Assembly: GCF_030013595.1 (NCBI RefSeq)
Contig: NZ_CP122768.1
Strand: one strand, 5' to 3'
Length of the DNA: 64,000 nt
Origin: Escherichia coli
GTDB lineage: Bacteria > Pseudomonadota > Gammaproteobacteria > Enterobacterales > Enterobacteriaceae
In this document: positions 1,614-30,205 of the stretch, piece by piece
Layout of the letters: the number at the start of each line of letters is the position of its first letter
Numbering within the stretch: position 1 is the first letter of the stretch
Translations under genes and position numbers: made by a program
The notes under the pieces: generated by a model
Database searches by the model: none
What the model was told of the DNA's origin: nothing
The model's input: only the letters and a program-made list of their open reading frames with translations

Positions 1614-1639
1614 TGAAGTGACACACTGAATTTGGCCAC

Positions 1640-1841: not shown

Positions 1842-2261
<420 letters not shown>

Positions 2262-4498: not shown

Positions 4499-4864
4499 AT
4501 GATAAATCTTCCCGCAGGCACAAAAATCTGGCTGGTTGCCGGTATCACCGATATGCGCAACGGCTTCAATGGTCTCGCCGCAAAGGTGCAGACAGCGTTG
4601 AAAGATGACCCGATGTCCGGCCACGTCTTCATCTTCCGGGGCCGCAGCGGCAGTCAGGTCAAACTGCTGTGGTCCACCGGCGACGGACTGTGCCTGCTGA
4701 CCAAAAGGCTGGAGCGTGGCCGCTTCGCCTGGCCGTCGACCCGCGATGGCAAAGTGTTCCTGACGCCGGCGCAGCTGGCGATGCTGATGGAAGGTATCGA
4801 CTGGCGACAGCCAAAGCGGTTACTGACGTCCCTGACATGTTGTAGCCCAGGTCTTCTTCGTTGA
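4499..4864 (+). CDS. IS66-family orfB (TnpB-like accessory protein)
   Basis: MINLPAGTKIWLVAGITDMRNGFNGLAAKVQ...FIFRGRSGSQVKLLW...DGLCLLTKRLERGRFAWP matches the conserved IS66 Orf2 family. Confidence 0.75.
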   Translation: MINLPAGTKIWLVAGITDMRNGFNGLAAKVQTALKDDPMSGHVFIFRGRSGSQVKLLWSTGDGLCLLTKRLERGRFAWPSTRDGKVFLTPAQLAMLMEGIDWRQPKRLLTSLTCCSPGLLR

Positions 4865-5684
4865 TAAAGTTCACATCCAGAGGATGGATACTTCCTGTAG
4901 CCCGTAATATCGTCGGTTCAATATCCTGCACATTCATCGGGATCACCGATGCAAGAAAAGCCCATTGATCAGAATAAGGCTGGAAATTAATATCAACAAA
5001 AACGCTTCCCCCCGATGCACGCGGTCTTTTTTGCAGAGGTAACGCGATAAGATTACCAAATCCTCCTTTTGGCATAGTATCCTGATTAGGAAATAATCGG
5101 TCATAAGAACTCAATTGCAGCTGTCGGGTCCGGCTGCACGTATAGCTAATAATAGCAGTCCCCAGACGGCGAGCTTCGCGGGCCGAAACTCGTGAAGCAA
5201 AAAATATCCAGACATGCGCTCCCTGACGTGAGCGGGATATTTCCAGCGCAGCAGGTACACTCAGCTCATCACAGGCTCGCATGAACGCGGATGCATCCTT
5301 CTGCCATTCAGCTTTATCAAAATCAACAGCCAGAAAATAACAGGAATCATCTTCCAGCAACGGATATAACCCGGCAGTATGCGTGCCTGCCAGATGCTGG
5401 TAGATGACAAGATCAGATACAGGGAGTAACTGACGGTGCGTACAGTCCCCGCATTTTATCCGGGGTTTACCGCATATTCTCGCCTGCCATTCGTTAGCGC
5501 AGGCAGGAGAGTACCCTGATTTGCCGCTGGTTTTACTTTCCCAACGAAGGGCCCATATATCATCACGCCCACGAAACAACCGACGAAATAATGCAACCTT
5601 CTCGTCGGTGGATAATACGGAAACGCGCTGCACAGGGCTCGGCGGTTTACGTCGCCATTCCAAGTAATGAGACCAGACGGGCAT
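4850..5684 (-). pseudogene. archaeo-eukaryotic-type primase-polymerase-like protein, N-terminal fragment; C-terminus replaced by the IS66 remnant (boundary approximate)
   Basis: ORF 4659..5684 contains DxD-like YFLAVDFDKAEW and sGxH-like SRQGAHVWIFF motifs plus Cys cluster CGKPRIKCGDC; its last ~60 codons are antisense to IS66 orfB, so the gene is truncated near 4850. Confidence 0.35.
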
Positions 5685-5887
5685 TTTCTGCCCTCAATGC
5701 AGCTAATTCATCGCTGTCAGATTTATGAACCATATTCGTTACCTGTATCCGATCCACTGAGGCACCACGGCAGAAATTCGGGTCCCCTACACTGATGACA
5801 AAGCGCCCCGCCCTCTTCTGCCTATTAACTCAAGCACCTCCCAACAACTTACAGAAACTTAATTCTAATACCTAATACAGCTGTAAT

Positions 5888-6451
5888 TCAGTTGTGTCGT
5901 GGTCGGCCCCGGTTACTTTTTTCGGGAAGCCTGCTACGGCCCAGAATAATACCGTGTTCTTTCTGATCCTGTTTAGCCAGGTAGCTGAGGGCGTAACGTA
6001 AGTCGTCTACCGCGGACTTATCACTATAGTGAATCACGTGATCGATACGCACCGGGTATTTATCTTTAGCCCGGCACAGATGAAAATAACCATCCCCTTC
6101 CGTGATCCGCCTCCAGATATCTCCCAGTTGCCTGGATATCTGATAAGAGTTCTTGTGACGTTGTCCATCCAGGTAGCCGATAAAATGAATATGAAGCCCT
6201 TTGTCTGGTGTATATTCCATAACCCAGTAATATCCTGCCAACATCGTTTGGTTTTCGCTAAGTAAACGGTATATTTCCATACACATACTGTGCTTACAGG
6301 AATGCCCGAAACTGGGCGTGTATTTCCTGTAGGCAAAATCAATTCTGAAAGGTAACAGTTTAGAAAAACGTTGAAACAGACCTTCCATGTGTTCATTCAC
6401 ATCTTTCAGAATCGCGAAATTCATTTCGTAATTGGGATTGGCATTATACAT
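5888..6451 (-). CDS. YagK/YfjJ-family (inovirus Gp2-like) prophage protein
   Basis: 187-aa ORF; resemblance to the YfjJ/YagK C-terminal domain family found in CP4-type cryptic prophages (by recall). Confidence 0.5.
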   Translation of the reverse strand: MYNANPNYEMNFAILKDVNEHMEGLFQRFSKLLPFRIDFAYRKYTPSFGHSCKHSMCMEIYRLLSENQTMLAGYYWVMEYTPDKGLHIHFIGYLDGQRHKNSYQISRQLGDIWRRITEGDGYFHLCRAKDKYPVRIDHVIHYSDKSAVDDLRYALSYLAKQDQKEHGIILGRSRLPEKSNRGRPRHN

Positions 6452-7423
6452 TTTATAGTCCTTACTTTATAAAATTCACAGGAAGAGGGAATTACGTAAA
6501 TACTGAGAGTACATAAACGCCGTACCACGGCATTAATAAACGAGGTAACCAGCAGTACAGACAACCTGATAAAACTGTTTGGTATTACCTCATTACAATG
6601 AGGTAATACTTCAGAATACAGTGAGGCTCTCTTAAACAGAGGACTAGTAAGAATTACAATGGCAAAAACACACCTCATAGAATTAAGTTTAAGGAAGTAC
6701 CATTCAATCACTTACAGGAAGTAATCTGATCTTCACAAAAGTCAGCTATCGAATAGCCACAGGCAACATCGCTATTAATATTGCCGTACCATTAAGTAAA
6801 AACAGGGACTCTGCAGAGAGAGCCTACAGATATTTAACCTCACAATAAGAAGATTATTTTATACAGAAAATATTATATTTACCCATACTTATAAACTGTA
6901 ATGGAGCTATAACATACGAACTAAAGACAATATACTCTAATAGTGTTCTGGTACGTAACTAGTGTTAAATACAAACCAGACATACATTCAGTGGATTAAC
7001 TATCTCAATATTACGCTATGAGCGTAGTAACATAATTTACACATAACTAAACCCCATACACCTCCACACTGTAGTATATGGGATAGACGCATTACGCACA
7101 TACAGAATACTCAGCATAACATAAAGAGGAGTGACATTACGATAAAAAGAGACAACATAACAGATAACATAACTCCCATTAATAATACTAATTAACCTAA
7201 ATTATTTATTGAATACGAAAACAATGAAGGCCCCACCTCACCTCAGACTAAAGCCGACAATATCCTGAGCAACAGGATATCCAATAGTAAATAGTGGTTA
7301 CACCAGTTATATTTACTGACTGACCTGTACCAGAGTTTTCTAATACAACGCTGACATGGTAAAGGCATTAGTCTCCTCCGCAAGTAGCAGAGGAGACTAT
7401 ATGTTAGTCAACGATTAAGTTGT

Positions 7424-8874
7424 TCAGAGGTCAAAGTTAGGTGCGACACACAACGTTTTTCCCTCAATAACCGGTACAACTCTGTTTTGTTCATACAGTA
7501 AATCCAGTAACCAGTTGATTTTATCCTTTTTCCGGAAACGGTTCGGACCACGCTGTAAAATGTCATTTTTTTTCATACAGAGGATCCCCTTCTCAATGCA
7601 ATAGCTTTTTATCCAGTTGAAAAGTTCAAGCTCCTCTGGAATGAGTCGCACAGGTACGGTCAGGGCAGGGTTGTCAAAAGTTAACGGATTAGACAACCGC
7701 ACATACTCATTACCGTACCATATTGCTAATTCTCTCGCCATTTCTGCAATGTAAGGGGAAATCTCCCCCTCCTCACCGCTCGAATGGTAAATAAGTCCTG
7801 CCAGTCTTGCCATATACTCTGCATTTTTAGCAGCATATTCCCGGCAATGTCTTAAAGGCCCCAATCCCCCCAGCTTCGATTCCACATCATTGTAATAATC
7901 CGTCCAGATTCTGGCAGCCTGAGGAGAAAAGTGAAGGCAACGTCGTTCACCACTCATCGCCAGACTTTCATCAATAAGCTCATTGATCCTCTGTTCAAAC
8001 AAATCCTGATACTGTGATGAATAATTATCTCCGGTTATTATCCTTGTCCCCTGCGTTGATGTTGGTTGACACATCAAAAACCTTGCATGATGTCCTGACG
8101 TTTTCACAAGTTCTTTTTTTCGCGTACAAAAACCTTTGTGGTAAACATCAGGCTGAATCATCGCCGACATCGTCAGTCTTGGCTCCTTCAAATTAATTCC
8201 GGGAGATGATTTCCTGTCGATGAAAAGAGAACCTCCATCCCACAAAGTGTTAATAATTCCCAGTTTACTCATGGCCCGGCTGTCAAAAATTCCCCCCCTT
8301 CACTGGATACAAGAGCAAAAGAACGATTGCTATCGGAGTAATATTTTAACATTCCCTCTATCGTTGTCTCATTAAAAATTGTTCGACGTATCTGCGGCGG
8401 AACAGGAGACTTATTCAGATGCGTTTCAAGCTCTGATTCTGTTGCCTTGTAATCTTTACCGGCACGAATCTCTTTATGAAATTTTGATTCCAGCGCTTTT
8501 TGTTTTTGCTCCCATATTTCCTTTTCTGTGCTGTAATTCTCAACCAGTTTCGCGTATTCTTCCGCCAGGGCTTCATCCCTGAGATAAAATGCTTTCATAA
8601 ACACTTTATCCACGGTCGTTTTCCTTTCACCAGAATCAGCCAGAATCAGAGAGTAAAGATTAACAGGCCCACGTAAATTTCCAGGTCTGCACACGTCAAT
8701 CTGATTCTGACAGGCAATTGAGATCGCTGTTAATGCGGATGTCGCCACCATAGCCAAAGGTGCCTGTGTATTTTTTTGAGTTTCAATTATTGCATTTCTC
8801 ACCAGCGGTGGTAGTGCATATATCGGATAAGGATTTTCTGGTGCAAGTAAGCACATAAAAGCCTCTCTTTTCAT
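7424..8874 (-). pseudogene. DUF3987 (YfjI-like) protein split into 201-aa and 282-aa reading frames at a G7 homopolymer/ATGA junction
   Basis: ORFs 8269..8874 and 7424..8272 lie in different frames; coding-strand G7 tract (plus-strand C7 at 8292-8298) sits 20 nt before the junction; adding one G would fuse them into ~483 aa. Confidence 0.55.
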
Positions 8875-9104
8875 TAATGGGTTAGTAAAGTAGCAGCAAC
8901 TCCCGCTATAATAGCGAAATAGCTGCTGTTCAGACCTAATGTTCTGAGAAATACAGAATATCTGTAGATCTGATGTTTAATAAACCGATAAGGTTAATTC
9001 AGTTCATACTGTGTTATTTACCACGAAATATCATTCATGTTTCTCATTCTTAACACCTCCTAAAATTATTTCACTAACACCTTCCCCCCGGTCTTTTTCC
9101 TTTC

Positions 9105-9332
9105 TCAGGAATCAGCCAGAACCATAGTGTAAATATTAACGGGCCCACGTAAATTTCCGGGGTTGCACACGTCAATCTGATTCTGACAGGCAATTGATAT
9201 CGCTGTTAATAATGATGTTGTAGTCATAGCCAGAGATGCTTTTTCATTGTGTTGAGTTTCAATTATTGCATTTCCAGTCATTGATGGTTGCGCATATACT
9301 GGATACGGAGTATCCGGTTTGATGTAAGACAT
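9105..9332 (-). pseudogene. truncated duplicate of the N-terminus of the DUF3987 gene
   Basis: 75-aa ORF ...GNAIIETQHNEKASLAMTTTSLLTAISIACQNQIDVCNPGNLRGPVNIYTMVLADS parallels ...RNAIIETQKNTQAPLAMVATSALTAISIACQNQIDVCRPGNLRGPVNLYSLILADS of ORF 8269..8874. Confidence 0.5.
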
Positions 9333-9437
9333 AAATATTTCCTTTTTTCGTAATAACTTTCGGTTATAGCAGCTATTTCCGCTACAATAGCAACAATAGC
9401 TGCTATACAGACTGGATATACTGAAAATACAGACAGT

Positions 9438-9686
9438 TCATCTGGTCTGTATCCAGCAGAGAAGGTCACTTAACAACCATCCGCAAGATTTCTTTCCGAT
9501 AGACTTACGTGGTGGAAATGTTCCCTCCCGTTCAAGTTTCCACGCTTGTGTACGAGAAATTGACGTGATCTCATATCGTTCCTTTTCACGTACCAGTCTG
9601 TCGCATTCAATCCCATAAGCTTTCAAAATGACCAGACGCTGTTCATCTGTTAATGGAAGCCACATACTACCCTCCTGATATATCAA
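9438..9686 (-). CDS. AlpA-family phage/island transcriptional regulator (HTH)
   Basis: C-terminal ...ITSISRTQAWKLEREGTFPPRKSIGKKSCGWLLSDLLCWI matches the AlpA pattern (helix-turn-helix followed by ...G...W...W); position next to the DUF3987 gene as in CP4-57-type islands. Confidence 0.6.
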   Translation of the reverse strand: MIYQEGSMWLPLTDEQRLVILKAYGIECDRLVREKERYEITSISRTQAWKLEREGTFPPRKSIGKKSCGWLLSDLLCWIQTR

Positions 9687-10355
9687 TACTTTTTATTTCC
9701 GGCATGAGCATGAAATGACTAAGTTTCCCGGATAAACAATGAGTGAAAGTCACTATCATTCATCCAGTCAACACCTTACAAATAAAATGTAATACTATGA
9801 TTTTTATAGGTCAAAATACTGAATTGAAATGTTAAAATGGCTTTTAATAGAAAAAATAAAGACATATAGAACCAAATAAAAACAAGCCGCGACCAATAAA
9901 AACAAAAATTAATATTAAAAATCCATTATGACGATTTTTGTTGACTAAAATTAGGTTGGGATATATAAATAAATCCATGTAAAATTCAAACAAAGCATGG
10001 AGGAGTCGCAGGAAGGTGAAATATTTCCATCTAATTTGTGATAATCATCACAAAAATAAGCTACAACAAGCGGAGGAAAAGACAATCTGTTGCTGAACAG
10101 ACAGAAGCAGGCTACGAATGATCGGAAAATGAAGCAAATACGCTTATACAGAAGACGCAGAGGTAACTGACGGAGACAATCACAATCAGGAGAAAATTAT
10201 CGTAAATAATGTATAAAATCTCAGGATATAAACAAATGTACACAAGCTATCCACGTAATCAGCGGCTGGCTCAGGATTAACGTTTCATTTCAGTGGACAA
10301 CATCGATTCTGTCTGACAGCGGACCAATATGTAGCAAGCAGAAACTTCTGACATC

Positions 10356-11954
10356 ATGGTAACTCGGACAATGCAACAAAAGTATCAGTATGATCGTGTT
10401 TTATCCGGCGAACTCCACCCATTCCCTGGCATATACGAGGCGGTTTCCGAACAAATCCTTTTGCTCATTTTTAAAGCACGTCAACTATATCAGGATCCAG
10501 AATATCGCCCCTGGTTTGAAGAACAGCACAGAGTACTCTCTGCATTACGTGCCAATACAGAGCTCCTGAGAATCTTTAGAGAACAAAGAAGCGCTGAAGA
10601 ACCAAAGCTTACTATTGAAGAGTCTACCTCCCCCCAACCCACTCCTTCTGCTCTTACAGATGCGCTTAATGTGATGTGCCATTTATACAATGGTTTTGAT
10701 GAAGGAAATATCAGTCTGAAAACTTGGGGGGCGATGCAAGAGGTACAGACAACATCAACCTTTATCAGCCCAGGACCGAGAACCTGGAAAACACCTGAAC
10801 TGGCAAAGTTTGTAGGAGATGATTTATTTAATATTCTGACTGAATGTAAGGCCTGGAGTTCACCAATTCCAGCAGAAACCCGACAGGGGTATTGCCATCA
10901 GGATCTGTCTGTTGCACACTCCTGCACCTCAGAGTTACTGGCACACCTGAATCAATATCATGAAATTGATGAATCAGCAATACTTGCCAGAGTTATTGGT
11001 ATAACAGTTAACGGATTCTACAAGAAAAATAATACAGACCTTCCAGAATGGCTATCCCCCTTTAAAGAGGAACATAAAATATTCAGAGATTGTCCGGAGC
11101 AAAATACCGGGGATGTAATCAGACGGAAAGAACAACTGTTGAAAACAGGACGTACAGAATTCGTGAATAATTTGTGTCGGGTCGCCAACTGGTATGAAAT
11201 TGAGTCAATATACGATGAATACGTCCGTCTTTATGCCAATGAAATCATTGACTGGTTCAACAAAACCATGAAGTATTTTAAACCAACAGATTTTATCCGA
11301 TATACATGGAAATTCGCAACAGTTACTCCGGATAAAGATACAGAAACCGGGCATACAACTGCATGGGAAAAGGATTATTGCCAGATAACCATACAACGTG
11401 ATGAACTTCTGAGGTTGATTCACACCAATACCCTTCAGGATGCAGTAATTTATCTTTGTCATTGTCTACAGAAGGAATACAAGAAATCATCCCAAAATGA
11501 GATAGAGTTCCCAGGAATAAAACCTCCGACATCAGAGAGTAAAATTAATATAACAAATAATATTAAATTTCATTCTCTCCTGGAGCTCAGTAAAGATAAT
11601 GAGAAGCGTCTGGAAACATTTCAAAAATGGTATGAAAAAAATAAAGTTTTGTTAGAAAGTCATAAACAAAAACGAACAGAGAAGATTGACGTTGCCGTAC
11701 GACTTGTAGGGCTGAAAGCCTATGATCTGCATGAAGGGATTCCGGATAGTCCAAAACGAAAAGTTAAAGATGGCATAAATGAAGACATCAAAGCCGATAC
11801 CAGTTTACGCCTGTCAAAGACAAATATAAGTGATACGTCGCTAAACCGTTATCGCCGCACTGTTAAGGAGATTATCAATAACGAAATTGACGCATTCCTG
11901 TTGGAACAGAAGAAAAAAATAAAAGATTTCCCTACAGTGAAGATAGAGATGTGA
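10356..11954 (+). CDS. hypothetical protein, 532 aa, AT-rich island cargo gene; no recognisable domain
   Basis: Long ATG-initiated ORF with no stops in a visibly AT-rich block, preceded by ~670 bp of AT-rich non-coding DNA; lysine-rich C-terminal third. Confidence 0.6.
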   Translation: MVTRTMQQKYQYDRVLSGELHPFPGIYEAVSEQILLLIFKARQLYQDPEYRPWFEEQHRVLSALRANTELLRIFREQRSAEEPKLTIEESTSPQPTPSALTDALNVMCHLYNGFDEGNISLKTWGAMQEVQTTSTFISPGPRTWKTPELAKFVGDDLFNILTECKAWSSPIPAETRQGYCHQDLSVAHSCTSELLAHLNQYHEIDESAILARVIGITVNGFYKKNNTDLPEWLSPFKEEHKIFRDCPEQNTGDVIRRKEQLLKTGRTEFVNNLCRVANWYEIESIYDEYVRLYANEIIDWFNKTMKYFKPTDFIRYTWKFATVTPDKDTETGHTTAWEKDYCQITIQRDELLRLIHTNTLQDAVIYLCHCLQKEYKKSSQNEIEFPGIKPPTSESKINITNNIKFHSLLELSKDNEKRLETFQKWYEKNKVLLESHKQKRTEKIDVAVRLVGLKAYDLHEGIPDSPKRKVKDGINEDIKADTSLRLSKTNISDTSLNRYRRTVKEIINNEIDAFLLEQKKKIKDFPTVKIEM

Positions 11955-12078
11955 TTCGACCTTTATGGGGAAAATGCCTGACCGGGCAGTAGATCACAGA
12001 TGGGATAACATCCCGGTTATCCCCTGTTTGTTCTGCTTCAGGTTGCCAGAGCTCCAGGAACACGAGGCAATCGGCAAA

Positions 12079-12675
12079 TTATGCGGCTTTTCCATTAACA
12101 GATTCGGCCACAAGAACAACACCGTGTTTGTTTCGATCAGGATGTTCACTCCAGATTTCTGATTCAGGAATACTTTCCCCATCATAGCAGATCCGATCAC
12201 CATCAAACGGATAATACCGTGCGGAATCTGTATCTAAGATAAACACCTTAAGATTCGTTGAACGACGCGCTATATGCTGCCAGAGGGCTTTACCTCCTTC
12301 ATATTGCTCGTTATCACTTAATAGTATAACGCCTGCTTTTGTGGCTATTGTTTCATAAACAAACGTAGCAAGGCTAACATCACGTACAGCACCATCGACA
12401 ACAATCCCTTCAATCTGAGCAACGTCCTGTTCTTCCCAGAATTTCCGGACAAACACCCCTTCAAGCTGTGAACGACGCTGAAGCTCCAGAGTGGCAACAA
12501 CCTTATGGCGAATATCACCATCAATAACAGAAGGTGCAGCTTCGATTACCGCAGCGAACGGAGTCTTTGGATCCCAGATGATCTGGTAAAGCACACCCTG
12601 AATAGTTACTCCATCCAGTATCGAAAAACGACGAGCTACAGTAGCAGGGGAGTAAGACATTGGAATGACAGCCAT
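12079..12675 (-). CDS. hypothetical protein, 198 aa, adjacent to the tRNA 3' end
   Basis: ATG-initiated ORF convergent with the 532-aa gene; no recognisable motif; no clear Shine-Dalgarno upstream. Confidence 0.5.
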   Translation of the reverse strand: MAVIPMSYSPATVARRFSILDGVTIQGVLYQIIWDPKTPFAAVIEAAPSVIDGDIRHKVVATLELQRRSQLEGVFVRKFWEEQDVAQIEGIVVDGAVRDVSLATFVYETIATKAGVILLSDNEQYEGGKALWQHIARRSTNLKVFILDTDSARYYPFDGDRICYDGESIPESEIWSEHPDRNKHGVVLVAESVNGKAA

Positions 12676-12985
12676 TTTATGGCCTAAAATTTGAAAACAT
12701 CAGTATCAATACTGACCTCATCAGTCTGAGCATATATTGATAAAGTTTTTATGTTTACACTCAATAAATACCTTACCAAACAACTAATAGCGATGTCTAC
12801 ATTGCCATTCGACATGCTTACAATTTTTGTCAACAAGAAAGTGAATTTATATCAACGGTAAGAAGTAAACACGAGGACACCAAAACCAAATGTACACACT
12901 TTTGTGCTTTGTGTCCCCTGTGTGTACCCAAATGACAAACTGCAAGAAAATCTAGGCACACACTTATCTAACTTATTGATTTAAA

Positions 12986-13061
12986 TGGTGCCGATAATAG
13001 GAGTCGAACCTACGACCTTCGCATTACGAATGCGCTGCTCTACCAACTGAGCTATATCGGC
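12986..13061 (-). tRNA. thrW: tRNA-Thr (anticodon CGU), thrW-like; island integration site at its 3' end
   Basis: Reverse complement reads GCCGATATAGCTCAGTTGGTAGAGCAGCGCATTCGTAATGCGAAGGTCGTAGGTTCGACTCCTATTATCGGCACCA: cloverleaf-compatible, anticodon loop ttCGTaa, CCA end. Confidence 0.93.
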
Positions 13062-15831: not shown

Positions 15832-16887
15832 ATGAAAAAGAGCACTCTGGCATTAGTGGTGATGGGCATTGTGGCATCTGCATCCGTACAGGCCGCAGAA
15901 ATATATAACAAAGACGGTAATAAACTGGATGTCTATGGCAAAGTTAAAGCCATGCATTATATGAGTGATAACGACAGTAAAGATGGCGACCAGAGTTATA
16001 TCCGTTTTGGTTTTAAAGGCGAAACACAAATTAACGATCAACTGACGGGTTATGGTCGTTGGGAAGCAGAGTTTGCCGGTAATAAAGCGGAGAGTGATAC
16101 TGCACAGCAAAAAACGCGTCTCGCTTTTGCCGGGTTGAAATATAAAGATTTGGGTTCTTTCGATTATGGTCGTAACCTGGGCGCGCTGTATGACGTGGAA
16201 GCCTGGACCGATATGTTCCCGGAATTTGGTGGCGACTCCTCGGCGCAGACCGACAACTTTATGACCAAACGCGCCAGCGGTCTGGCCACTTACCGTAACA
16301 CTGACTTCTTCGGCGTTATCGATGGCCTGAACTTAACCCTGCAATATCAAGGGAAAAACGAAAACCGCGACGTTAAAAAGCAAAACGGCGATGGCTTCGG
16401 TACGTCATTGACATATGACTTTGGTGGCAGCGATTTCGCCATCAGTGGGGCCTATACCAACTCCGATCGCACTAACGAGCAGAACCTGCAAAGCCGTGGC
16501 ACAGGCAAGCGTGCAGAAGCATGGGCAACAGGTCTGAAATACGATGCCAATAATATTTATCTGGCAACTTTCTATTCTGAAACACGCAAAATGACGCCAA
16601 TAACTGGCGGCTTTGCCAATAAGACACAGAACTTTGAAGCGGTCGCCCAATACCAGTTTGACTTTGGTCTGCGTCCGTCGCTGGGTTATGTCTTATCGAA
16701 AGGGAAAGATATTGAAGGCATCGGTGATGAAGATCTGGTCAACTATATCGATGTTGGTGCTACGTATTATTTCAACAAAAATATGTCGGCATTTGTTGAT
16801 TATAAAATAAACCAACTGGATAGCGATAATAAGCTGAACATCAATAATGATGATATTGTCGCGGTTGGCATGACCTATCAGTTTTAA
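15832..16887 (+). CDS. phoE: phosphate-starvation outer membrane porin PhoE
   Basis: [37 protein letters not shown]... with C-terminal ...VAVGMTYQF porin signature; second ATG of the ORF chosen. Confidence 0.93.
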
Positions 16888-20953: not shown

Positions 20954-21508
20954 TTATCCTTCGATAAAAGCCATCCCTGTAAATGTCCGTCTCGGGTTGC
21001 CACGTTCAATCTGGTGATGGAACATTCGCCGCTGCGATTTCAGCACCGCGCTATTTTCCTGTTGCTGTTGTTCCAGCTTCCAGGCAATCAGCAATCGCGC
21101 CAGCAGCTTGTTAGCATGCCCAGAAACCAGTTTTTGCGCCCATGATGAGGCCGATACGGACTCGGACAAATCCACTGAATAGTGCCGCACCAACTTTCGC
21201 TTAATGCCCATGCGTTATCGCCATCCAGAGAAATCAGCGCCGAACGCAGCGTGTCAGAGTAGCGGCCCGTTTCTGTTTCCAGCACCGTTACCGCGACGTC
21301 TTGCCGGGTAAAAACGACCAACAGAGAATAACGCTGCGCCAATCGGGTAGCCGCGTCCGGGGTGTAAATCTGGCATCCCTACTACGCGCTGCATGTTGGG
21401 TAAATTTGCCGTGGTGTGTAATTGTTGAATCGCTAAACTCTCGATCCGCAGGTCATCAGATGCGATGGTAAATACCGCATCGGATAAGGGACGAATATAT
21501 TTGCCCAT
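20954..21508 (-). pseudogene. prfH: rtcB-like 5' fragment and prfH (release factor H) remnants, frameshifted
   Basis: 21254..21508 encodes an RtcB-like N-terminus (...[16 protein letters not shown]...); 20954..21342 encodes PrfH-like segments in two frames (...[51 protein letters not shown]). Confidence 0.65.
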
Positions 21509-21752: not shown

Positions 21753-22205
21753 TTAATGTTGCGGTTTATATCGCATAGAAAAATTAGTAAACCACGCTCC
21801 CCTGCATTCAACGCGCTGCTGCTTAACTGTCTGAAAACCATAACGTTCAAAAAAGGGTTTTGCGGTTATGCTGGCGTCCACCGTAAGTTCGGATTCAGAC
21901 TTAATCAAAGGTTTTAACAAAGCGCTGGCAACCCCACGGCGGGTGTATTCAGGGTCAACAAATAACATATCGATATAATGTTCAATGCGGGAAATAAAAC
22001 CAACCGGTTGTGCATTAATGATCGCAACCCACACTTGTGATTTCGCGAGTTTCTCCTTCCAGCGAGATTCGTCAATCTGCGCCCAGGCGGCAATTTGTTG
22101 TGGTGAATAATGCTGACTGGCGGTCATCGTAACCGCTCTAATGAAAATAGCGCATAGTTGCTGAAAATCGCCAGGCTGATAATCTCTTATTTGTATGTTA
22201 TTCAT
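21753..22205 (-). CDS. yafP: GNAT-family acetyltransferase YafP
   Basis: 150-aa ORF; last gene of the dinB-yafN-yafO-yafP arrangement. Confidence 0.85.
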   Translation of the reverse strand: MNNIQIRDYQPGDFQQLCAIFIRAVTMTASQHYSPQQIAAWAQIDESRWKEKLAKSQVWVAIINAQPVGFISRIEHYIDMLFVDPEYTRRGVASALLKPLIKSESELTVDASITAKPFFERYGFQTVKQQRVECRGAWFTNFSMRYKPQH

Positions 22206-22214
22206 AATATAAAT

Positions 22215-22613
22215 TCAAAAACGCATGCGAAACGCTTCTGCCATTTTTCCAATTTTATGCATTTGGTTGTTATCTCGAGCCAGTTTATGAGGTTCAGGCT
22301 TCAGAATGGCAATGAGCAACCATGCTTGCTCATCAAACGCACCCTGACAATATACCAAATGCGCTTCGTCATTCGTTCTGCTGAATTGGCGCAACTGTGG
22401 CGGAAATGGATTATTCACATTTGCCAGATGAATATGAGCAACTCGCTCAAATTTGATTAATGGCCAGGTAAACGAGTCGTCGTAGAGTGCATCGCGACCA
22501 AATATATCTGGCAAAATACCGTCACGCTTATAGGAAATAAAATCCGCCGTTAACGCATCAAGTTCCTCTGCTGTAAGTTGCAGGCGAATAAGTTTTGTTT
22601 TGAATACCCGCAT
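22215..22613 (-). CDS. yafO: mRNA interferase toxin YafO
   Basis: 132-aa ORF immediately downstream of the yafN antitoxin gene (3-bp spacing). Confidence 0.85.
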   Translation of the reverse strand: MRVFKTKLIRLQLTAEELDALTADFISYKRDGILPDIFGRDALYDDSFTWPLIKFERVAHIHLANVNNPFPPQLRQFSRTNDEAHLVYCQGAFDEQAWLLIAILKPEPHKLARDNNQMHKIGKMAEAFRMRF

Positions 22614-22615
22614 CC

Positions 22616-22909
22616 TTATTCCTTAAAGTCATTGAAATCATCATCCGTCATATCATTAAGATATTGTTCAGCGCGGCGTGTAATTTCCTCTAATCTTGCG
22701 GCACTCGGACGGAAGCGCGCCTTCACCAGTTTTTTCTCCTCTTGTTCTGCAAGCATGTCCATTAACGCTTCGAATGCGCTGGCACTTAAGAGATATCCTG
22801 CGGGGCGATTATTAGAAAGAACCGCAACCGGTTGATCAATAAAGTATTTTGCTGGATTTTTACGTAACTCAGTGATATTGACCGATTTTTCAGCGAGAAT
22901 TCGATGCAT
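22616..22909 (-). CDS. yafN: antitoxin YafN (Phd/YefM family)
   Basis: 97-aa ORF MHRILAEKSVNITELRKNPAKYF... typical Phd/YefM-type N-terminus. Confidence 0.85.
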   Translation of the reverse strand: MHRILAEKSVNITELRKNPAKYFIDQPVAVLSNNRPAGYLLSASAFEALMDMLAEQEEKKLVKARFRPSAARLEEITRRAEQYLNDMTDDDFNDFKE

Positions 22910-22960: not shown

Positions 22961-24016
22961 TCATAATCCCAGCACCAGTTGTCTTTCCATTTGCGGGTCA
23001 AGCAACGTCACATGCAGCCCCACCAGCCGCACACCGCGCCCGCCGCGACGTTCATCCCAGGTTTTACGCGCGGTGGCAATTAAGTCAGCTTTATTCAGCC
23101 GCGGCCAGACGTGCTCCTGAGTGGTTTGCTGAAAATCGTCGAACTTTAATTTCACCCCCTGGCGAGCAATCAGTAAATCAGGTTTCACCTTTGCCAGACG
23201 GCGTTCAAGTTCCGGATACAGCCGCTCGATAATCGCTTCACATTCAGACCAGTGATGAATATCTTCCGCCATCGTGCGTTCCACGCCGACGGATTTTCGT
23301 AACCGTTCGCTGTTAACGTCGCGCTCGTCAATCCCCTGACTACGCTCCCACAAAATGCGGCCAAATTTGCCAAAACGTTTGAGCAGAGTCACCAGATCAC
23401 ACTTTTGCACATCACCGCAGGTCCGCAGCCCCATCGCTTCCAGTTTTGCCGCCGAGACTTTGCCGACGCCGGGAATTTTTGCCAGCGGTAAGGTTTGCAG
23501 AAATGCCGGAACTTCTGCCGGCGTAATCACAAACTGGCCGTTGGGTTTATTCATGTCGGAGGCGATTTTAGCGAGAAACTTTACTGGTGCCACGCCCGCA
23601 GACGCCGTCAGTTGCAGCTCGTTGAAGATTGTCTGGCGGATTTCCTGGGCGATGAGGGTCGCAGAACCGTGGCAATGGACGCTATCAGTAACATCGAGAT
23701 AGGCTTCATCCAGTGACAACGGTTCAATACGCGAGGTGTAGCGCGAGAAGATTTCACGGATATGATTTGAGGCTTCTTTGTAGGCGTCAAAGCGCCCCGG
23801 AAGCAAGGTGAGATGTGGGCATAATTTGAGCGCCATCCCAGTAGGCATAGCGCTACGTACGCCAAATTTACGCGCGGGATAATTGGCGGTGCTGATCACC
23901 CCCCGACGTTCGCGGCTGCCGCCAATAGCAATAGGGATATCGCGCAGGGCGGGATTGTCGCGCATCTCCACTGCGGCGAAAAAGCAGTCCATATCCACAT
24001 GAATGATTTTACGCAT
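22961..24016 (-). CDS. dinB: DNA polymerase IV (Y-family translesion polymerase)
   Basis: 351-aa [36 protein letters not shown]... classic Y-family motifs. Confidence 0.95.
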
Positions 24017-24030
24017 TGCTCACCTCTCAA

Positions 24031-24050
24031 CACTGGTAAAGTATACAGTG
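24031..24050. promoter_or_regulatory. LexA (SOS) box upstream of dinB
   Basis: cactggtaaagtatacagtg = CTG-N10-CAG palindrome 15 bp upstream of the dinB start. Confidence 0.8.
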
Positions 24051-24086
24051 ATTTCAGGGTTTGAGAAATGCGTAAAGATTCAGCAT

Positions 24087-25010
24087 CTAGCGCGTTCGCT
24101 GCGAAAGCACCTGCTGCTTATCCAGCTTTTGCACCAGCGGCTGCACCACTTTATCCCCATGCTGACCAAAGTATTGATACAGCGTATCGGACGCACTTTT
24201 GGTCAGCACCATAATCTCAATGCGTCGGTTGCCCGCGCTTTGCGGATTTTTCGCGTCCAGCAGCATCTGGTCCGCCATCGCGCTTACCTGCATCACTTTA
24301 TCTTCCGGCATTCCGGCCTCTTCCAGCACCCGACGGGCCGAAAGCGCGCGATCGCCCGAAAGGTTCCAGTTGTTGTAGATATTGTTTTTGTAGGCCATCG
24401 CATCGGTATGCCCGGTAATAATAATTTTGTTATCGAGCGAGTCGAACACTGGCGCGAGCTCCACCAGCAAAGTTTTAAAGAACGGCATAATCTGCGCGCT
24501 GCCGCGTTCAAACATATTGCGGTTCTGGTCATCTTTAATCAGCACGCGTAATCCCTGCGGGACAATCTCCATCTCCAGATTCGCTTCCATATGTGCATCA
24601 CGGGCAATGGTGTTGATACTGGTTGCCAACTCGCCAAGCTCGGTGGCGGATTTCTTCTTCAGCAGCGCCGGTTTCTCATTCACATCACGCGCTTTTTTCT
24701 CCGTCTCTTCCGGCACCGCTACGGTGGCAGGTTTTGGCGGATGAGACGGGCTGATTTTATTTAACGGCGACAGCCCACCACCGTTAAAAATCGACTGCCC
24801 GTGCAGCGCGGCGATAATGCTTTCACGCTCGGATTTACTGACGCTGTTGACAATCCACAGCGTCATAAACAGCGCCATCATTGCCAAAGTAAAGTCGGCG
24901 AACGTCACCTTCCGCGCCCCGCCGTGGTGCCCGGCATGATTCTTTTTGATCTGCCGCCGGACGATGGTGGTTTTTGCCCCACGCTCGCGGCGGTTGCCCG
25001 TCTTTCTCAT
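24087..25010 (-). CDS. lafU: lateral-flagellar stator protein MotB-like (OmpA-like C-terminus), intact
   Basis: ORF trimmed to MRKTGNRRERGAKTTIVRRQIKKNHAGHHGGARKVTFADFTLAMMALFMTLW... (MotB N-terminus with TM helix); C-terminal peptidoglycan-binding region; follows the MotA-like gene. Confidence 0.85.
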   Translation of the reverse strand: MRKTGNRRERGAKTTIVRRQIKKNHAGHHGGARKVTFADFTLAMMALFMTLWIVNSVSKSERESIIAALHGQSIFNGGGLSPLNKISPSHPPKPATVAVPEETEKKARDVNEKPALLKKKSATELGELATSINTIARDAHMEANLEMEIVPQGLRVLIKDDQNRNMFERGSAQIMPFFKTLLVELAPVFDSLDNKIIITGHTDAMAYKNNIYNNWNLSGDRALSARRVLEEAGMPEDKVMQVSAMADQMLLDAKNPQSAGNRRIEIMVLTKSASDTLYQYFGQHGDKVVQPLVQKLDKQQVLSQRTR

Positions 25011-25012: not shown

Positions 25013-25876
25013 TTATTCTTGCTCCAGCATCGCATTCACCCACGCGTCGAGGTTGGCGAAGGTCGGTTTAGATGCCAGATGCAGCAGCTTACGCCCGGCG
25101 TCCACCGCCAGCAGGGTCGGTTTGCCGCCTGCCTGCGCCACCAGCACGGTGCGCACGCATTCCAGCAAAGAATGTTCCGCCCGTGCCTGTTGTTCCATGG
25201 CGTTGGCAAGCGGGTCCATCAGGCAGTAGCAGATAAAGACGCCTAAAAACGTCCCCACCAGAGCCGCCGCCACTTTCAGGCCAATCAGGGCGATAGATCC
25301 ATCAATCGACTGCATGGTGATGATGATGCCCAGCACCGCCGCGCAAATACCAAATCCCGGCATCGCTTCGGCAGTACGTTGCAGCGAGCGCGACGGCGTT
25401 AACAGGGACTCTTCCGCGGTGTCCAGTTCCTGATCGAGAATGCCTTCCAGTTCGTGGGCGTCGATTTTGCCCATCGCCATCAGGCGAAAGTTATCGGCAA
25501 TAAAGGTCACCAGCCGCTTCTGGGTTAATACCAACGGGTATTTCTGGAAAACGGTGCTATCTTCCGGTTGCTCAATATGCTGATCCAGCATGCGCAGGCC
25601 GCCGTTTTGTACCATTTCAAGCAACTCATACAGGCACATTAATAGCTGACGCTGAAACTCCGGCCCGAGCTGTTTTTTACTGATCACGCCTTTAATTTGA
25701 TGGGCAATCTCTTTCAGCACATGTTTCGGGTTACCAATAATCATCGCCCCAAAACCGGCACCCAAAATAATGATCATCTCCGCCGGTTGCCAGATAGCCA
25801 CTAATTGCCCGCCCGCTTCAAAATAACCGCCAAATACGCAGCCGAGCACCACCAGTAAACCTAATATTTTTTGCAT
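25013..25876 (-). CDS. lafT: lateral-flagellar stator protein MotA-like
   Basis: 287-aa four-TM MotA-type protein ending ...AALVGTFLGVFICYCLMDPLANAM... Confidence 0.85.
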   Translation of the reverse strand: MQKILGLLVVLGCVFGGYFEAGGQLVAIWQPAEMIIILGAGFGAMIIGNPKHVLKEIAHQIKGVISKKQLGPEFQRQLLMCLYELLEMVQNGGLRMLDQHIEQPEDSTVFQKYPLVLTQKRLVTFIADNFRLMAMGKIDAHELEGILDQELDTAEESLLTPSRSLQRTAEAMPGFGICAAVLGIIITMQSIDGSIALIGLKVAAALVGTFLGVFICYCLMDPLANAMEQQARAEHSLLECVRTVLVAQAGGKPTLLAVDAGRKLLHLASKPTFANLDAWVNAMLEQE

Positions 25877-25888
25877 GATTTCTTCACT

Positions 25889-26605
25889 TTAATTCGGATA
25901 GACAAAATCACGAATTTTCTGCGCGATCTGTTTATTCAGTTGACAAATTCGGGCCTCGGTTAGCCCTAATACCAGCGCAATTTCTTTGAGATTCATCTCA
26001 TGCTGGTAATACATGGAGAGGATCAGTTGCTCTTTTTCGCTTAATTGTGAAAGCGCCTGTTGCAACATTTGCTGGGTGACAAACTGATCTTCCAGTTCCC
26101 GGCCAGCAAGCGGAATGCCAGGCCCTTCGCCGTTCAGCAGTTCGTCAAGGCTGGCGAGCGTTTCCGCCCCTTCCAGTTGCTGATATTCGAGATAATCTTC
26201 ATGCGAGATCCCTTCCACGGCCAGTTCTGGCCACTCCGGTTCGTGCCCCAGTTTTTTACGCGTTTCGCGAATCAGGTCTTTCATCTGATGATATTTCTGT
26301 CGCAGCTGGCGCGGTCGCCAGTCGAGAGCGCGCAGCTCATCAAGGATCGCGCCGCGAATACGGTGCACGGCATAGCCGGCAAAACCTTCGTCCGGCAGCC
26401 CGTAGCGGCGAATGGCGTTAAGCAGCCCCATTAACGCCGTTTGTTCCATATCCTGACGGTCAATAATGCAATTACACTGCGGGGCAAGTTGCCGCACCAC
26501 TTTACGCACCAGTGGTAAATAGGCCTGCAAGTAGTGGCTCTCCTGCTGCGGGGTTAATACCGGCGCGGCAGCAAATTCTTCTGACTCGAATACGTCCTGT
26601 AGCAT
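25889..26605 (-). CDS. lafS: sigma-28 (FliA-like) sigma factor of the lateral system
   Basis: 238-aa sigma-70-family protein with region 2 and region 4 HTH (...EIALVLGLTEARICQLNKQ...). Confidence 0.85.
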   Translation of the reverse strand: MLQDVFESEEFAAAPVLTPQQESHYLQAYLPLVRKVVRQLAPQCNCIIDRQDMEQTALMGLLNAIRRYGLPDEGFAGYAVHRIRGAILDELRALDWRPRQLRQKYHQMKDLIRETRKKLGHEPEWPELAVEGISHEDYLEYQQLEGAETLASLDELLNGEGPGIPLAGRELEDQFVTQQMLQQALSQLSEKEQLILSMYYQHEMNLKEIALVLGLTEARICQLNKQIAQKIRDFVYPN

Positions 26606-26624
26606 GTTTATATCCGCCTGGTGA

Positions 26625-27092
26625 TTACTGGAAGACCACTTTTTTCACCAGCAAATCCTTATACGGTGCGCTCATTTTGCGACGTTGAAGATCTTTCTTT
26701 AACGCATCCGAAATCAGTTTGCGGATGGCAGATATTTTCATGCCGCGCAAATCTTCAAATTTCATTTCCGTCAGGCATTCAACCGCAATACTTTGATACA
26801 GCGGCTCCTGATGTTTTATTTTTTCCGCTTCTTTGTCACTGGCAACCACCATCACTAATTCCGCCGACAAATAATGGTCCGCGCCGTTGTTGTCATGCAG
26901 CGTGACAATGGTTTCCGGCAACGTCACAAACACGCTTTTGCTTTCATCCAGGGTTTCCACCGTTTCCGTCTGCGCGGCGGCAGTCGGTTTTCCTTTTCCG
27001 GCATAATGATGCCAGACACCCCATCCAGCTCCGACCCCCACCACCAACGCCAGAACGGCGCTGACCACGCCCGCCACCACGATTTTCTTCAT
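26625..27092 (-). CDS. lafF: FliL-like flagellar basal body-associated protein
   Basis: 155-aa protein with a single N-terminal TM segment, FliL-like. Confidence 0.75.
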   Translation of the reverse strand: MKKIVVAGVVSAVLALVVGVGAGWGVWHHYAGKGKPTAAAQTETVETLDESKSVFVTLPETIVTLHDNNGADHYLSAELVMVVASDKEAEKIKHQEPLYQSIAVECLTEMKFEDLRGMKISAIRKLISDALKKDLQRRKMSAPYKDLLVKKVVFQ

Positions 27093-27099
27093 ATTGCCT

Positions 27100-28161
27100 T
27101 TACACTTTGATCAAAACGGATTCGTTCTGTTGAAATTGAGGCGCATCATCAAGCTGTAAGGCGGCACTCACCTCTTCCTGCTGATGGCCCGACTGTTGTT
27201 GTTGCTGCGACTGCCCTTCGGAGGAAACCTGTACGTTCACCTCCATAAAATTTTGCGCCGTCAGATGCTGGCGGAGATCGTCGCTAAACTGTTGTAACGC
27301 GCGGCAAACTTCACTTTGGTTCGCGCCGATATGCACCATCAGTTTGCCGTTATCGAGTTGTACGGCGATCTCAAGCTTGCCAAGCGACGGTGGATCGAGA
27401 CGGATGGTGGAGATCTGCTGTTGTTTGTTGAGCTGAAAGTGGATCTGATCTTTCAAAAGCGTCGTCAGTTTTTCGCCCAGTTCGTCCATCGAAAGCGTGG
27501 CTGGTTTGGCGACAATCTCCTGATGTTCGCTGACCAGATCCGGCGTCTTAACCTGCAACACCGCACGCGCAATAACCGGTTCGCTGTCCGGCACTTTTTC
27601 CGTTTTACGCTCGACCTGCGGGCGCGCGTTCACACGGGTTAGTTCAGGTTTCGGGCGAGCTGGCTGTGTTGAGACGCGCGGCTGCGTCGGCGCAATGGCA
27701 TGTAAATATTCACTGGCGTAAGTCGCCAGTCTGGCCTGCTGTTCGGGTTTCGCCTGCGGCAACTGACTGATCAGTTCCTGCAACTGCGGCGGCAACGGCG
27801 TGAGTTCCTGCTGCTGCGTCGGGCGTTGCGGCGCGTTTTGCACCACCGCTTTCGTCAATTGCTGGATAACCGGCGATGTTGCGACGTTTCGCGGCTGCGG
27901 CGTGTCCTGATGCGGCGCGGCAGGTTGCGGAAGTAACAGCGCCATTAGCGCCTGCATCGCCACCAGATCGTTCTCCTGCGGGCGCGTCGCCTGTTGCTGA
28001 CTGGTTTTAGCGCTATGAACGCGCTCCGCCACCGCCGCGACCGCCATTTTCGGCAGGGTAAACGCGGGCGCGTTTTCACCGCTCACCGGCGGTAAAATAT
28101 CCGCCTTCAACGAAGCGGTTTCCGCAAGCGTTCCGAGCGTGGCAAGCAATGCCGGATTCAT
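27100..28161 (-). CDS. lafE: FliK-like hook-length control protein
   Basis: 353 aa, Pro/Gln-rich central region and conserved C-terminal hook-length domain. Confidence 0.75.
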   Translation of the reverse strand: MNPALLATLGTLAETASLKADILPPVSGENAPAFTLPKMAVAAVAERVHSAKTSQQQATRPQENDLVAMQALMALLLPQPAAPHQDTPQPRNVATSPVIQQLTKAVVQNAPQRPTQQQELTPLPPQLQELISQLPQAKPEQQARLATYASEYLHAIAPTQPRVSTQPARPKPELTRVNARPQVERKTEKVPDSEPVIARAVLQVKTPDLVSEHQEIVAKPATLSMDELGEKLTTLLKDQIHFQLNKQQQISTIRLDPPSLGKLEIAVQLDNGKLMVHIGANQSEVCRALQQFSDDLRQHLTAQNFMEVNVQVSSEGQSQQQQQSGHQQEEVSAALQLDDAPQFQQNESVLIKV

Positions 28162-28469
28162 GACTTCTCCGAAAGTAAATTAACAATTGAGTAGGCCAGT
28201 ACGCCTTCCTGATGCCGCTGATGCTGTTCCATACGCGCTTTCAACACTTCTGCGCGCTGCTCGCGCCGTTTAATCAGGGCGTTAAACGCGTCATACAGTC
28301 GCGCTTTCACTGCATCCAACTGCGCCGCATCGGTTTCCGCCGCCGCGTAATCGTGAAACTGGCGTATCAACTGCTGATGCAGTGCCGGAAGGCGTCGCCA
28401 GCGTTGCTTGTCGAGGGCTTCATTCATCGCCTCGACCAGTGCGAAAAGTTGCCTGCGTTGTTTTTCCAT
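28158..28469 (-). CDS. lafD: FliT-like flagellar chaperone
   Basis: 103-aa helical protein between the FliS-like and FliK-like genes. Confidence 0.6.
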   Translation of the reverse strand: MEKQRRQLFALVEAMNEALDKQRWRRLPALHQQLIRQFHDYAAAETDAAQLDAVKARLYDAFNALIKRREQRAEVLKARMEQHQRHQEGVLAYSIVNLLSEKS

Positions 28470-28473
28470 CGTC

Positions 28474-28866
28474 TTAACCCAGCTTGCCCGAAAGCCCTTC
28501 CCAGCCTTCGCGCAGGTTGCTTAAGATCAGCATCACTTCATCGATTTTCTCTGCCGACAGTTCGCCGCTGGCCTCATACAATCGGTAAACGCAGTGGTCA
28601 TAGAGTCGCGAAAGGTTGACCACCAGCTCGCCGCCAGTTTCAAACTCCAGCGAACTGGTGAGCGCATTGAGAATGTCGATGCATTTATTGATGCTCTGGG
28701 CTTTCTTCTCGAAACGCCGCCCTTCAATATGGCTTTTGGCGCGTTCCAGCTCGTCCATCAGGCCAGAAAACAGCACCAGCACCAGTTCCAGAGGCGATGC
28801 CGCCGCAGTACGCGCCGCGAGATCGATCTCTTTATATTGCGAATAGCCGTCCTGTACTTGGTACAT
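28474..28866 (-). CDS. lafC: FliS-like flagellin chaperone
   Basis: 130-aa protein MYQVQDGYSQYKEIDLAARTAAASPLELVLVLFSGL... FliS family. Confidence 0.8.
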   Translation of the reverse strand: MYQVQDGYSQYKEIDLAARTAAASPLELVLVLFSGLMDELERAKSHIEGRRFEKKAQSINKCIDILNALTSSLEFETGGELVVNLSRLYDHCVYRLYEASGELSAEKIDEVMLILSNLREGWEGLSGKLG

Positions 28867-28888
28867 CTTTAGGGATATTCCTTCTGAG

Positions 28889-30205
28889 TTACGCGAATGC
28901 CGCCATGCTGGCTTTCATGGTGTACACCTCGACCAGCGTGTTGGTGTACTCCTCGAGATAACGGTCGTAGTTGGCGTTATAGGTATCAGTAAGCTGATCG
29001 CCTTCGTCCTGAATTTTGCTCATCTGATCGTCAATGTTCTGCTGGCGCAGGGTGATGATGCCGTTGCTGGAGTCCGTGTAGGTGTTAATCAGGTCGTCCA
29101 TCTGCGCTACCATGCTGTTGTCGCCAACGAAAATAGAGGTCAGACCGTCAGGATTTTTCGCCATTTCGTCGTTGAACTGGTCGGAGTCAATCTGTAAGTG
29201 GCCGTGAGAATCGAGGGTGATGCCATAGTCAACAATCGACACGCCGTTGTAGCTGGCATGGGCGATGTCATCGAGCTGGTTCGCCAGTGAACTGAGTCCG
29301 GCGTCGCCTGCAAATACCCCGGCGCTGGTACTGTCATCACCGTGAGTGGTTAGCGAATCAACCGTATCGATCAGGGTGTTATAGGCATCGACAAAGGTCT
29401 GCACTTTCTCCTGGCTGGCGCTGGAATCTTCGCTAATGTTAAAGGTAGTGAGGTCGCTGTCAGAATCGCTGACTTCGGTGAAAGTCATGGTGACGCCGGG
29501 GATCACATCATCAAACGTATTGCTGCTGTTGGTGATCTCAGGCCCCGTGGCGCTGCCAAGATGAATAATCGCGTCCTGAGCGGAGGAAACATCCGTGGCA
29601 ACGGGCGCGCTGGTGCTATCGTTGCTGCCGTCATGCCCCGTTACGCTCACCGAAAATGCGCTCTGCGCCCCGGTGCTATCGGAGGTGAGCATAATCGTGG
29701 TGGTGCCGTCGGTTTTTACCAGTGCCGCCGACACGCCCGGATTGTCATCAGAGTCGTTAATCGCATTCACCAGCTCGCTGGCGTCGATAAAACCGTCGCC
29801 GTCACCGTTCTGATCTGCCGCCGACAGATCAATATCCATGGTGCTGTCGCCCATCGTCAGTTCAAAAGTGCCGGTGGCGGAAAAGGTGTCGTCGCCCATA
29901 CTGAACGTGGTTTGCTGCCCCTGCGCCAGTTGCTCAACGAAAAACGAGTAGCTTCCCGCCTGTGCCTGCGAGTTAGCAGAAACGGTCGCCGAGTCATTAT
30001 TGCTGGTGGCGGCAAAAGTCACCGGGCCGTCGGTATCGCTGTTCAGCGCGTCAACGGCGCTCTGAAAATCGCTTAACGCCGAGCTGAGCGAGTCCAGGCC
30101 GCTGCTTTCAGCGTCCAGCTCGGTCTGCTTCTCCTGCAAATTTGCCGCCTGGGTGGCGACATCCGCATAAGCAATTTCTTGCGCAATGGTTCTTGGGTTA
30201 ATCAT
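28889..30205 (-). CDS. lafB: FliD-like filament cap protein
   Basis: 438-aa Ser/Thr/Asp-rich axial protein with cap-like terminal heptads. Confidence 0.8.
   Translation of the reverse strand: MINPRTIAQEIAYADVATQAANLQEKQTELDAESSGLDSLSSALSDFQSAVDALNSDTDGPVTFAATSNNDSATVSANSQAQAGSYSFFVEQLAQGQQTTFSMGDDTFSATGTFELTMGDSTMDIDLSAADQNGDGDGFIDASELVNAINDSDDNPGVSAALVKTDGTTTIMLTSDSTGAQSAFSVSVTGHDGSNDSTSAPVATDVSSAQDAIIHLGSATGPEITNSSNTFDDVIPGVTMTFTEVSDSDSDLTTFNISEDSSASQEKVQTFVDAYNTLIDTVDSLTTHGDDSTSAGVFAGDAGLSSLANQLDDIAHASYNGVSIVDYGITLDSHGHLQIDSDQFNDEMAKNPDGLTSIFVGDNSMVAQMDDLINTYTDSSNGIITLRQQNIDDQMSKIQDEGDQLTDTYNANYDRYLEEYTNTLVEVYTMKASMAAFA

Follow-up and report, generated by a model that had tools for sequence, protein, structure and literature searches.

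A predicted hairpin encloses the LexA operator of dinB at the end of an intact Flag-2 locus in Escherichia coli

Upon DNA damage, RecA-stimulated self-cleavage of LexA frees the promoter of the dinB-yafN-yafO-yafP operon of Escherichia coli and the operon is transcribed. The Flag-2 lateral-flagella locus, whose end adjoins this operon, was reportedly described in E. coli 042 by Ren et al. 2005. A third relevant system is found in the transposases of IS10 and IS50, for which Davis, Simons and Kleckner 1985 and Krebs and Reznikoff 1986 are said to have described fold-back inhibition directed against outside promoters. In E. coli K-12, the dinB (dinP) LexA site is listed upstream of a UV-induced dinB transcript, and the transcript start determined with tiling arrays lies downstream of the LexA motif (PMC3009722). 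The SOS induction of yafNO is driven by the dinB promoter, on which induction by mitomycin C also depends (PMC2814082). For Flag-2, De Maayer et al. 2020 give a presence in 24 of 100 strains (PMC6993521).

The DNA analyzed here (the window, a stretch of 64,000 nucleotides taken as a whole) is E. coli chromosome that matches strain HCP5S3_I2 at 99.9% identity across the 10 kb compared, and all genes relevant to this work are on its minus strand (Table 1). The earlier note had the end of the Flag-2 locus abutting the dinB-yafN-yafO-yafP operon, and this is the arrangement found, with lafU as the last Flag-2 gene on the same strand as dinB. The genes upstream of lafU, lafB to lafT, are co-directional and tightly packed with intergenic gaps of 0–22 nt, and lafU ends in a TAG stop codon at 24089–24087. 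As in Flag-2 of E. coli 042 and of the Enterobacterales, cluster 3 ends in lafS-lafT-lafU, EcoRII/Dcm cargo genes are located inside the locus and the locus is present in about one quarter of E. coli (PMC6993521). The dinB side is that of K-12: the 20-bp LexA box, the −10 and −35 hexamers, the Shine–Dalgarno (SD) region and the start codon are identical, and the same dinB-yafN-yafO-yafP operon follows. Compared to a K-12-like strain, the 88-bp junction differs at two bases, both at the lafU stop (TAG here versus TAA). The two loci part upstream, where K-12 has lafU' as a promoter-less remnant fused to lfhA', whereas Flag-2 is intact here, so that lafU ends a potentially transcribed eight-gene operon.

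Table 1 Features of the lafU–dinB junction and its surroundings in the window.
Feature	Coordinates	Strand	Basis or remark
lafB(fliD)-lafC(fliS)-lafD-lafE(fliK)-lafF(fliL)-lafS(sigma factor)-lafT(motA)	25013..30205	-	RefSeq annotation of the 99.9% identical strain
lafU, MotB-like stator protein, last gene of Flag-2 cluster 3	24087..25010	-	Pfam MotB_plug and OmpA
lafU–dinB intergenic gap	24017..24086	-	Exactly 70 bp, without an intrinsic terminator
Inverted-repeat 5' arm, TTTACGCATTTCTCA	24062..24076	-	Repeat search and folds; overlaps the -35 hexamer
Predicted -35 hexamer TTCTCA	24062..24067	-	Promoter scan; 16-nt spacer to the -10 hexamer
LexA (SOS) operator of dinB, CACTGTATACTTTACCAGTG	24031..24050	-	Identical to the K-12 dinB box
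Predicted -10 hexamer TATACT of the dinB promoter	24040..24045	-	Promoter scan (consensus scan); within the operator
Shine–Dalgarno region GAGAGG of dinB	24023..24028	-	Read from the sequence; 6 nt from the ATG
Inverted-repeat 3' arm, TGAGCAATGCGTAAA	24008..24022	-	Spans 6 nt before the ATG, the start codon and codons 2–3
dinB (DNA polymerase IV)	22961..24016	-	ATG at 24016
yafN-yafO-yafP, distal genes of the dinB operon	21753..22909	-	

Of 5426 complete E. coli genomes, 5386 have the lafU/dinB junction, and its 88-bp core is 95–100% identical in 5409 E. coli genomes, the gap being nearly invariant. Plasmids account for fifteen of the junction matches and are presumably F-prime-type episomes that include the proAB-dinB region. 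The Flag-2 end is intact in 1265 of the 5426 genomes (23%), a fraction that agrees with the one given by De Maayer et al. 2020 (PMC6993521). Deletion has removed the laf operon upstream of lafU' in ~77% of E. coli genomes; most strains, K-12 among them, have the known lfhA'-lafU' deletion remnant. Farther on in the window, at 20954–21508 (minus strand) and 15832–16887 (plus strand), prfH and rtcB pseudogene remnants lie beyond yafP, and phoE is annotated with an internal stop in the near-identical strain.

Outside E. coli, lafU directly adjoins dinB in Phytobacter massiliensis, with a gap of 74 nt, and in E. albertii, with a gap of 129 nt containing a REP-like insertion. This palindrome (…GACCGGATAAGCGCTGCGCATCCGGCG…, positions 3262–3330 of E. 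albertii locus L130) follows the lafU' stop, ahead of the dinB promoter, and lengthens the gap with the hairpin arms described below unmoved. In Citrobacter and Kluyvera, one additional gene separates lafU from dinB. The Kluyvera gene (3550–4194 of locus L131) is co-directional, encodes 214 aa as called and has no Pfam match; a similarly placed co-directional gene in three Citrobacter loci (L012, L030 and L058), of ~230–250 aa by crude open reading frame (ORF) calls, likewise has none. In both genera this extra gene stops ~65 nt ahead of the dinB ATG, and in Kluyvera yafP directly follows dinB, without yafNO. In Enterobacter, Pseudescherichia and Atlantibacter, lafU has neighbors other than dinB, so these genera are uninformative on the junction. 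In Enterobacter kobei (L132) and Pseudescherichia (L133), an NlpC/P60 (yafL-like) gene comes next after lafU and a convergent lfhA after that, which makes neighbors of the two 'ends' of the E. coli locus there; dinB lies elsewhere.

The LexA operator had been read at 24031–24050 within a gap of 70 bp, and both the sequence and the gap length are borne out: the plus strand is cactggtaaagtatacagtg, the minus strand is CACTGTATACTTTACCAGTG and the gap is exactly 70 bp. Assignment of the 20-mer to dinB also holds, as it is identical to the K-12 dinB LexA site (PMC3009722). The distances given in the earlier note need adjustment. Placing the box immediately downstream of the lafU stop was loose, since it starts 36 nt past it, and there are 14 nt, not 15 bp, from the end of the box to the ATG. 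For comparison with known sites, we took the LexA consensus as a 16-bp core, CTG-N10-CAG, in a 20-bp imperfect palindrome resembling TACTGTATATATATACAGTA. The dinB box has both CTG/CAG triplets and the flanking CA/TG, and matches 13 of the 20 consensus positions.

The window was searched for CTG-N10-CAG and scored with a position weight matrix, which replaced a search with the full consensus and up to three mismatches that was too strict. The matrix was made from 22 further LexA boxes of E. coli, most of which were confirmed in the tables of PMC3009722. With 14.5 bits, the dinB box is at the low end for real LexA boxes (range 13.2–27.6) and takes fourth place among the sites of the window; the top score of shuffled windows averaged 12.7 ± 2.4 bits. 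On motif score alone, the dinB box is not above chance; its context, however, exceeds chance. The score lies within the range of the best chance matches for a 64-kb window that holds 24 CTG-N10-CAG occurrences, and the 20-mer might on these grounds be taken as a chance match without operator function. We give this reading practically no credence: it is contradicted by published data, the same 20-mer being the experimentally established site of K-12 (PMC3009722), and it is at odds with the conservation of position and sequence across genera and with the overlap of the 20-mer with the −10 hexamer.

Among LexA-like sites in the window, the highest score (21.0 bits, above all 200 shuffles) belongs to TACTGTTTAAATATCCAGAT (43943–43962, plus strand). 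This site is located 65 bp upstream of an EcoRII-family cytosine methyltransferase cargo gene inside Flag-2 (ORF 44027–45451). Homology to about 2450 plasmid methylase loci begins exactly at this box, and its CTG-N10-CAG is kept in IncN and Yokenella plasmids with an unrelated upstream flank; a conserved inverted repeat, CCAGAT-N12-ATCTGG, follows it. The site could be an SOS operator of the restriction-modification methylase promoter, or merely the promoter or autoregulation site of that gene. The second-best site, TACTGAAAATACAGACAGTT (9419–9438, plus strand; 19.1 bits), is in the immunity/early region of a prophage, where two small genes (9230–9436, plus strand; 9408–9842, minus strand) overlap at their 3' ends, and in no obvious promoter position. 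This lambdoid prophage occupies positions 1–12971 of the window and is integrated beside tRNA-Thr (thrW, 12986–13061). By the annotation of the near-identical strain, its genes include those for an integrase, an XRE-family repressor, antiterminator Q, a holin and, at 4544–4870 on the minus strand, a small 108-aa 'LexA family protein'.

The promoter scan gave a sole well-placed sigma-70-like promoter in the lafU–dinB gap, TTCTCA and TATACT with a 16-nt spacer, and the predicted −10 therefore falls within the LexA box. The operator would include both this hexamer and the transcription start that we infer near 24033, and a LexA dimer bound over the two would on that account exclude RNA polymerase. 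LexA would thus occlude the −10 and the start until RecA-stimulated cleavage relieved the block and dinB-yafN-yafO-yafP could be transcribed.

Conservation of this promoter was assessed over 123 Enterobacterales dinB upstream regions, comprising 120 from a scan with one genome per species and 3 from E. coli genome records. In 111 of the 123, CTG-N10-CAG lies no more than 70 nt ahead of the ATG, and in nearly all of these at 29–40 nt. The conserved box is commonly CTGTATACTTATCCAG, with CTTCTCA before it at the −35 position regardless of the upstream gene, and the −10 hexamer TATACT shows little or no variation. In many genera of the Enterobacteriaceae, including Escherichia, Citrobacter, Enterobacter, Kosakonia, Pluralibacter, Mangrovibacter and others (loci L004–L123), the non-consensus −35 CTTCTCA is kept 16 nt upstream of TATACT. 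This conservation suggests a constraint beyond sigma-70 recognition. The promoter core, consisting of CTTCTCA, 16 nt and TATACT inside CTG-N10-CAG, is ancient and independent of the upstream neighbor. We consider it highly probable that the 20-bp element is the LexA operator of the dinB promoter, within the account of laf read-through and a silencing hairpin given below. The operator finding is a correctly read landmark that adds nothing new and is no discovery, as publications already cover the SOS box of dinB, the dinB-yafNOP operon and the location of Flag-2 beside dinB.

Read-through from the laf operon into dinB, raised as a possibility in the earlier note, would be countered by a strong terminator after lafU. 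The terminator scan found no canonical intrinsic terminator on the minus strand between 23700 and 24500, and read-through therefore still stands as far as terminators of the intrinsic, as opposed to the Rho-dependent, type are concerned. A hairpin across the lafU stop was considered as a terminator and rejected, as it is no more stable than shuffled sequences (z = −0.58) and is followed by AAUCUUUACGC, with no U-run. The untranslated stretch between lafU and dinB is only 70 nt. Transcriptional read-through from lafU to dinB is plausible from the sequence and, given the lack of a recognizable intrinsic terminator in the gap, laf transcripts probably run from the intact Flag-2 operon into the dinB promoter region. 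A crude search with the sigma-28 consensus for laf promoters gave no match at a sensible intergenic position.

If it occurred, read-through of lafBCDEFSTU could raise Pol IV independently of SOS and so couple lateral-flagella expression to a mutagenic polymerase, as might be expected from the shared strand, the 70-bp gap without an intrinsic terminator and the tight packing of the upstream operon. We regard this outcome as unlikely. LexA bound to the operator would stand in the path of the polymerase, and Flag-2 is deleted in ~77% of E. coli. The literature search found no report of lafU-dinB co-transcription or read-through, and no discussion of the junction, its terminators or read-through was found in the accessible part of De Maayer et al. 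2020 (PMC6993521). In MG1655, a cat cassette inserted between lafU' and dinB was phenotypically neutral, leaving dinB phenotypes unchanged (PMC4564189). A predicted hairpin of −24.9 kcal/mol, which would hide the dinB start and the adjacent ribosome-binding bases in the read-through RNA, also argues against increased Pol IV.

This hairpin is the one new point of the analysis. It is formed by a 15-nt inverted repeat (14/15 positions complementary, 93%) that encloses the operator, the 3' arm comprising the bases just downstream of the SD core and the dinB start codon. Folding of the 76-nt sense RNA from 24080 to 24005 gave −24.9 kcal/mol with z = −5.19, and none of 200 dinucleotide-preserving shuffles was as stable. 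The AUG is paired in this fold; in the minimum free energy (MFE) structure, an alternative register also pairs UUGAGA (24030–24025) with UCUCAA, and GAGAGG of the SD region is paired in the predicted fold of the long RNA. When the 49 gene starts of the window were treated in the same way (mean z −0.19, s.d. 1.25), dinB was the lone outlier at z = −4.94, the next being −2.26. An Rfam search of 23800–24400 returned no matching family, only sub-threshold microRNA-like matches that reflect the hairpin shape, and no paper tying dinB to a leader hairpin was found in the literature search.

The position of the arms would confine the hairpin to RNA that enters from upstream. The overlap of the 5' arm with the −35 hexamer means that mRNA initiated at this promoter would be without the arm, which is upstream of the predicted dinB start and hence would be present only in RNA from lafU. 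The predicted cost to open positions −14 to +3, covering the SD and AUG, is 16.9 kcal/mol in RNA entering from lafU, compared to 7.2 kcal/mol in the predicted native mRNA with its inferred start and 9.5 ± 2.1 kcal/mol when the upstream segment is shuffled. Read-through RNA would carry a hairpin of about −25 kcal/mol over the ribosome-binding region and start codon of dinB, while its own mRNA would start in the hairpin loop and not include the 5' arm. With the ribosome-binding site and start covered in read-through RNA only, little added Pol IV would be expected from it, whatever its effect on the downstream yaf genes.

The closest parallel to this arrangement is that of IS10 and IS50, where an inverted repeat likewise has its 5' arm upstream of the gene's own start (inferred in the case of dinB) and pairs with the ribosome-binding site and start codon. 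The logic there is that silencing is restricted to transcripts entering from outside, which for dinB is a prediction. The two differ in that dinB is a chromosomal DNA-repair gene and not a transposase, and in that a repressor operator occupies the hairpin loop. The modeled folds suggest that read-through RNA is translationally silent for dinB, similar to IS10 fold-back inhibition. Read-through into dinB, which the scan for terminators leaves standing, would on this evidence not raise Pol IV, as the sequence suggests.

Hairpins of the E. coli architecture with other arm sequences are predicted at the dinB start in Phytobacter and Kluyvera. The Phytobacter helix is 17 bp long and pairs GGCCAUCGCCUCCUUUU with AAGAGGAGGGGGCGAUGC (−31.5 kcal/mol, z = −5.1), and that of Kluyvera pairs CGUGUCGGCUUUCCUCA with UGAGGGGAGCCUGAUGCG (−31.1 kcal/mol, z = −6.6). 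In E. albertii, the 5' arm differs from that of E. coli by C to U and A to G substitutions, both of which pair as G.U in the sense RNA only, and the fold has −19.9 kcal/mol and z = −3.8. When 109 loci were ranked by how strongly the SD is occluded compared to shuffles, the E. coli-type loci came first, third and fifth and Phytobacter ninth; the z values over the 109 loci are skewed upward, with a mean of 0.76, 21% above 2 and none below −2.

These comparisons bear on a reading of the inverted repeat as a by-product: a −35 rich in pyrimidines happens to complement an SD rich in purines, TTTACGCAT matches the ATGCGTAAA start by chance and the RNA structure has no selected function. We see this as a real possibility, falling a little below even odds. 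It accords with the coincidence of the arms with independently constrained elements, and with the nature of most pair changes in the alignment, in which U faces either A or G. The RNAalifold covariation term is small (−0.51), as CUUCUCA pairs with nearly any purine-rich SD. By our estimate, 64 kb of sequence would hold about a dozen 9-bp inverted repeats by chance. SD occlusion was not significantly associated with a nearby co-directional upstream ORF over 101 loci (one-sided p = 0.079, crude ORF calls), as would suit a by-product. Harder to reconcile with a by-product are the z of −5.2 and the standing of dinB as sole outlier of the 49 gene starts, the recurrence in three lineages of one architecture with a paired start codon from different sequences, the compatibility of the E. 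albertii substitutions with G.U pairing on the sense strand only and the positive skew over the 109 loci (21% above 2, none below −2). Within E. coli the arms are invariant and the few variants affect the loop or the one mismatched position. Covariation within the species could therefore not serve as a test of the hairpin, and the invariance itself is uninformative on RNA structure because the arms overlap the constrained −35, SD-proximal bases and start codon. The L035 row of this alignment and the fold of L058, both of the wrong strand, are disregarded.

Regulation of dinB beyond LexA is known, and RpoS dependence was reportedly found by Layton and Foster 2003. The hairpin might accordingly belong to a longer dinB mRNA made from an extra promoter in lafU, for example under stress or RpoS, and provide translational control of dinB. 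A sigma-70-like site inside lafU (24445–24418, minus strand) could supply such a promoter; it is a 9/12 consensus match of a kind expected by chance. As no documentation of such a transcript was found in the literature search and the tiling-array start of dinB is downstream of the LexA motif (PMC3009722), we judge the longer mRNA to be very improbable.

The reading that we put forward tentatively, at somewhat less than an even chance and on modeled RNA folds, is that dinB has a built-in translational insulator, its −35 hexamer and the bases just before it being complementary to its own ribosome-binding region and start codon and the loop between them holding the LexA operator. Pol IV dosage controls stress-induced mutagenesis, and raised Pol IV is toxic. 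Given this dosage sensitivity, translation tied to LexA-gated initiation would be a new layer of dinB regulation, if true. Confirmation of the hairpin would be of modest importance and would be a practical caution in the use of constructs with dinB driven or tagged from upstream. If dinB is insulated in this way, transcripts from the laf operon or any upstream promoter would be silent for Pol IV and only those from the LexA-controlled promoter would be translated, keeping the mutagenic polymerase strictly under SOS control; such an insulator might also be part of the reason for the conservation of the non-consensus −35 CTTCTCA across the Enterobacteriaceae.
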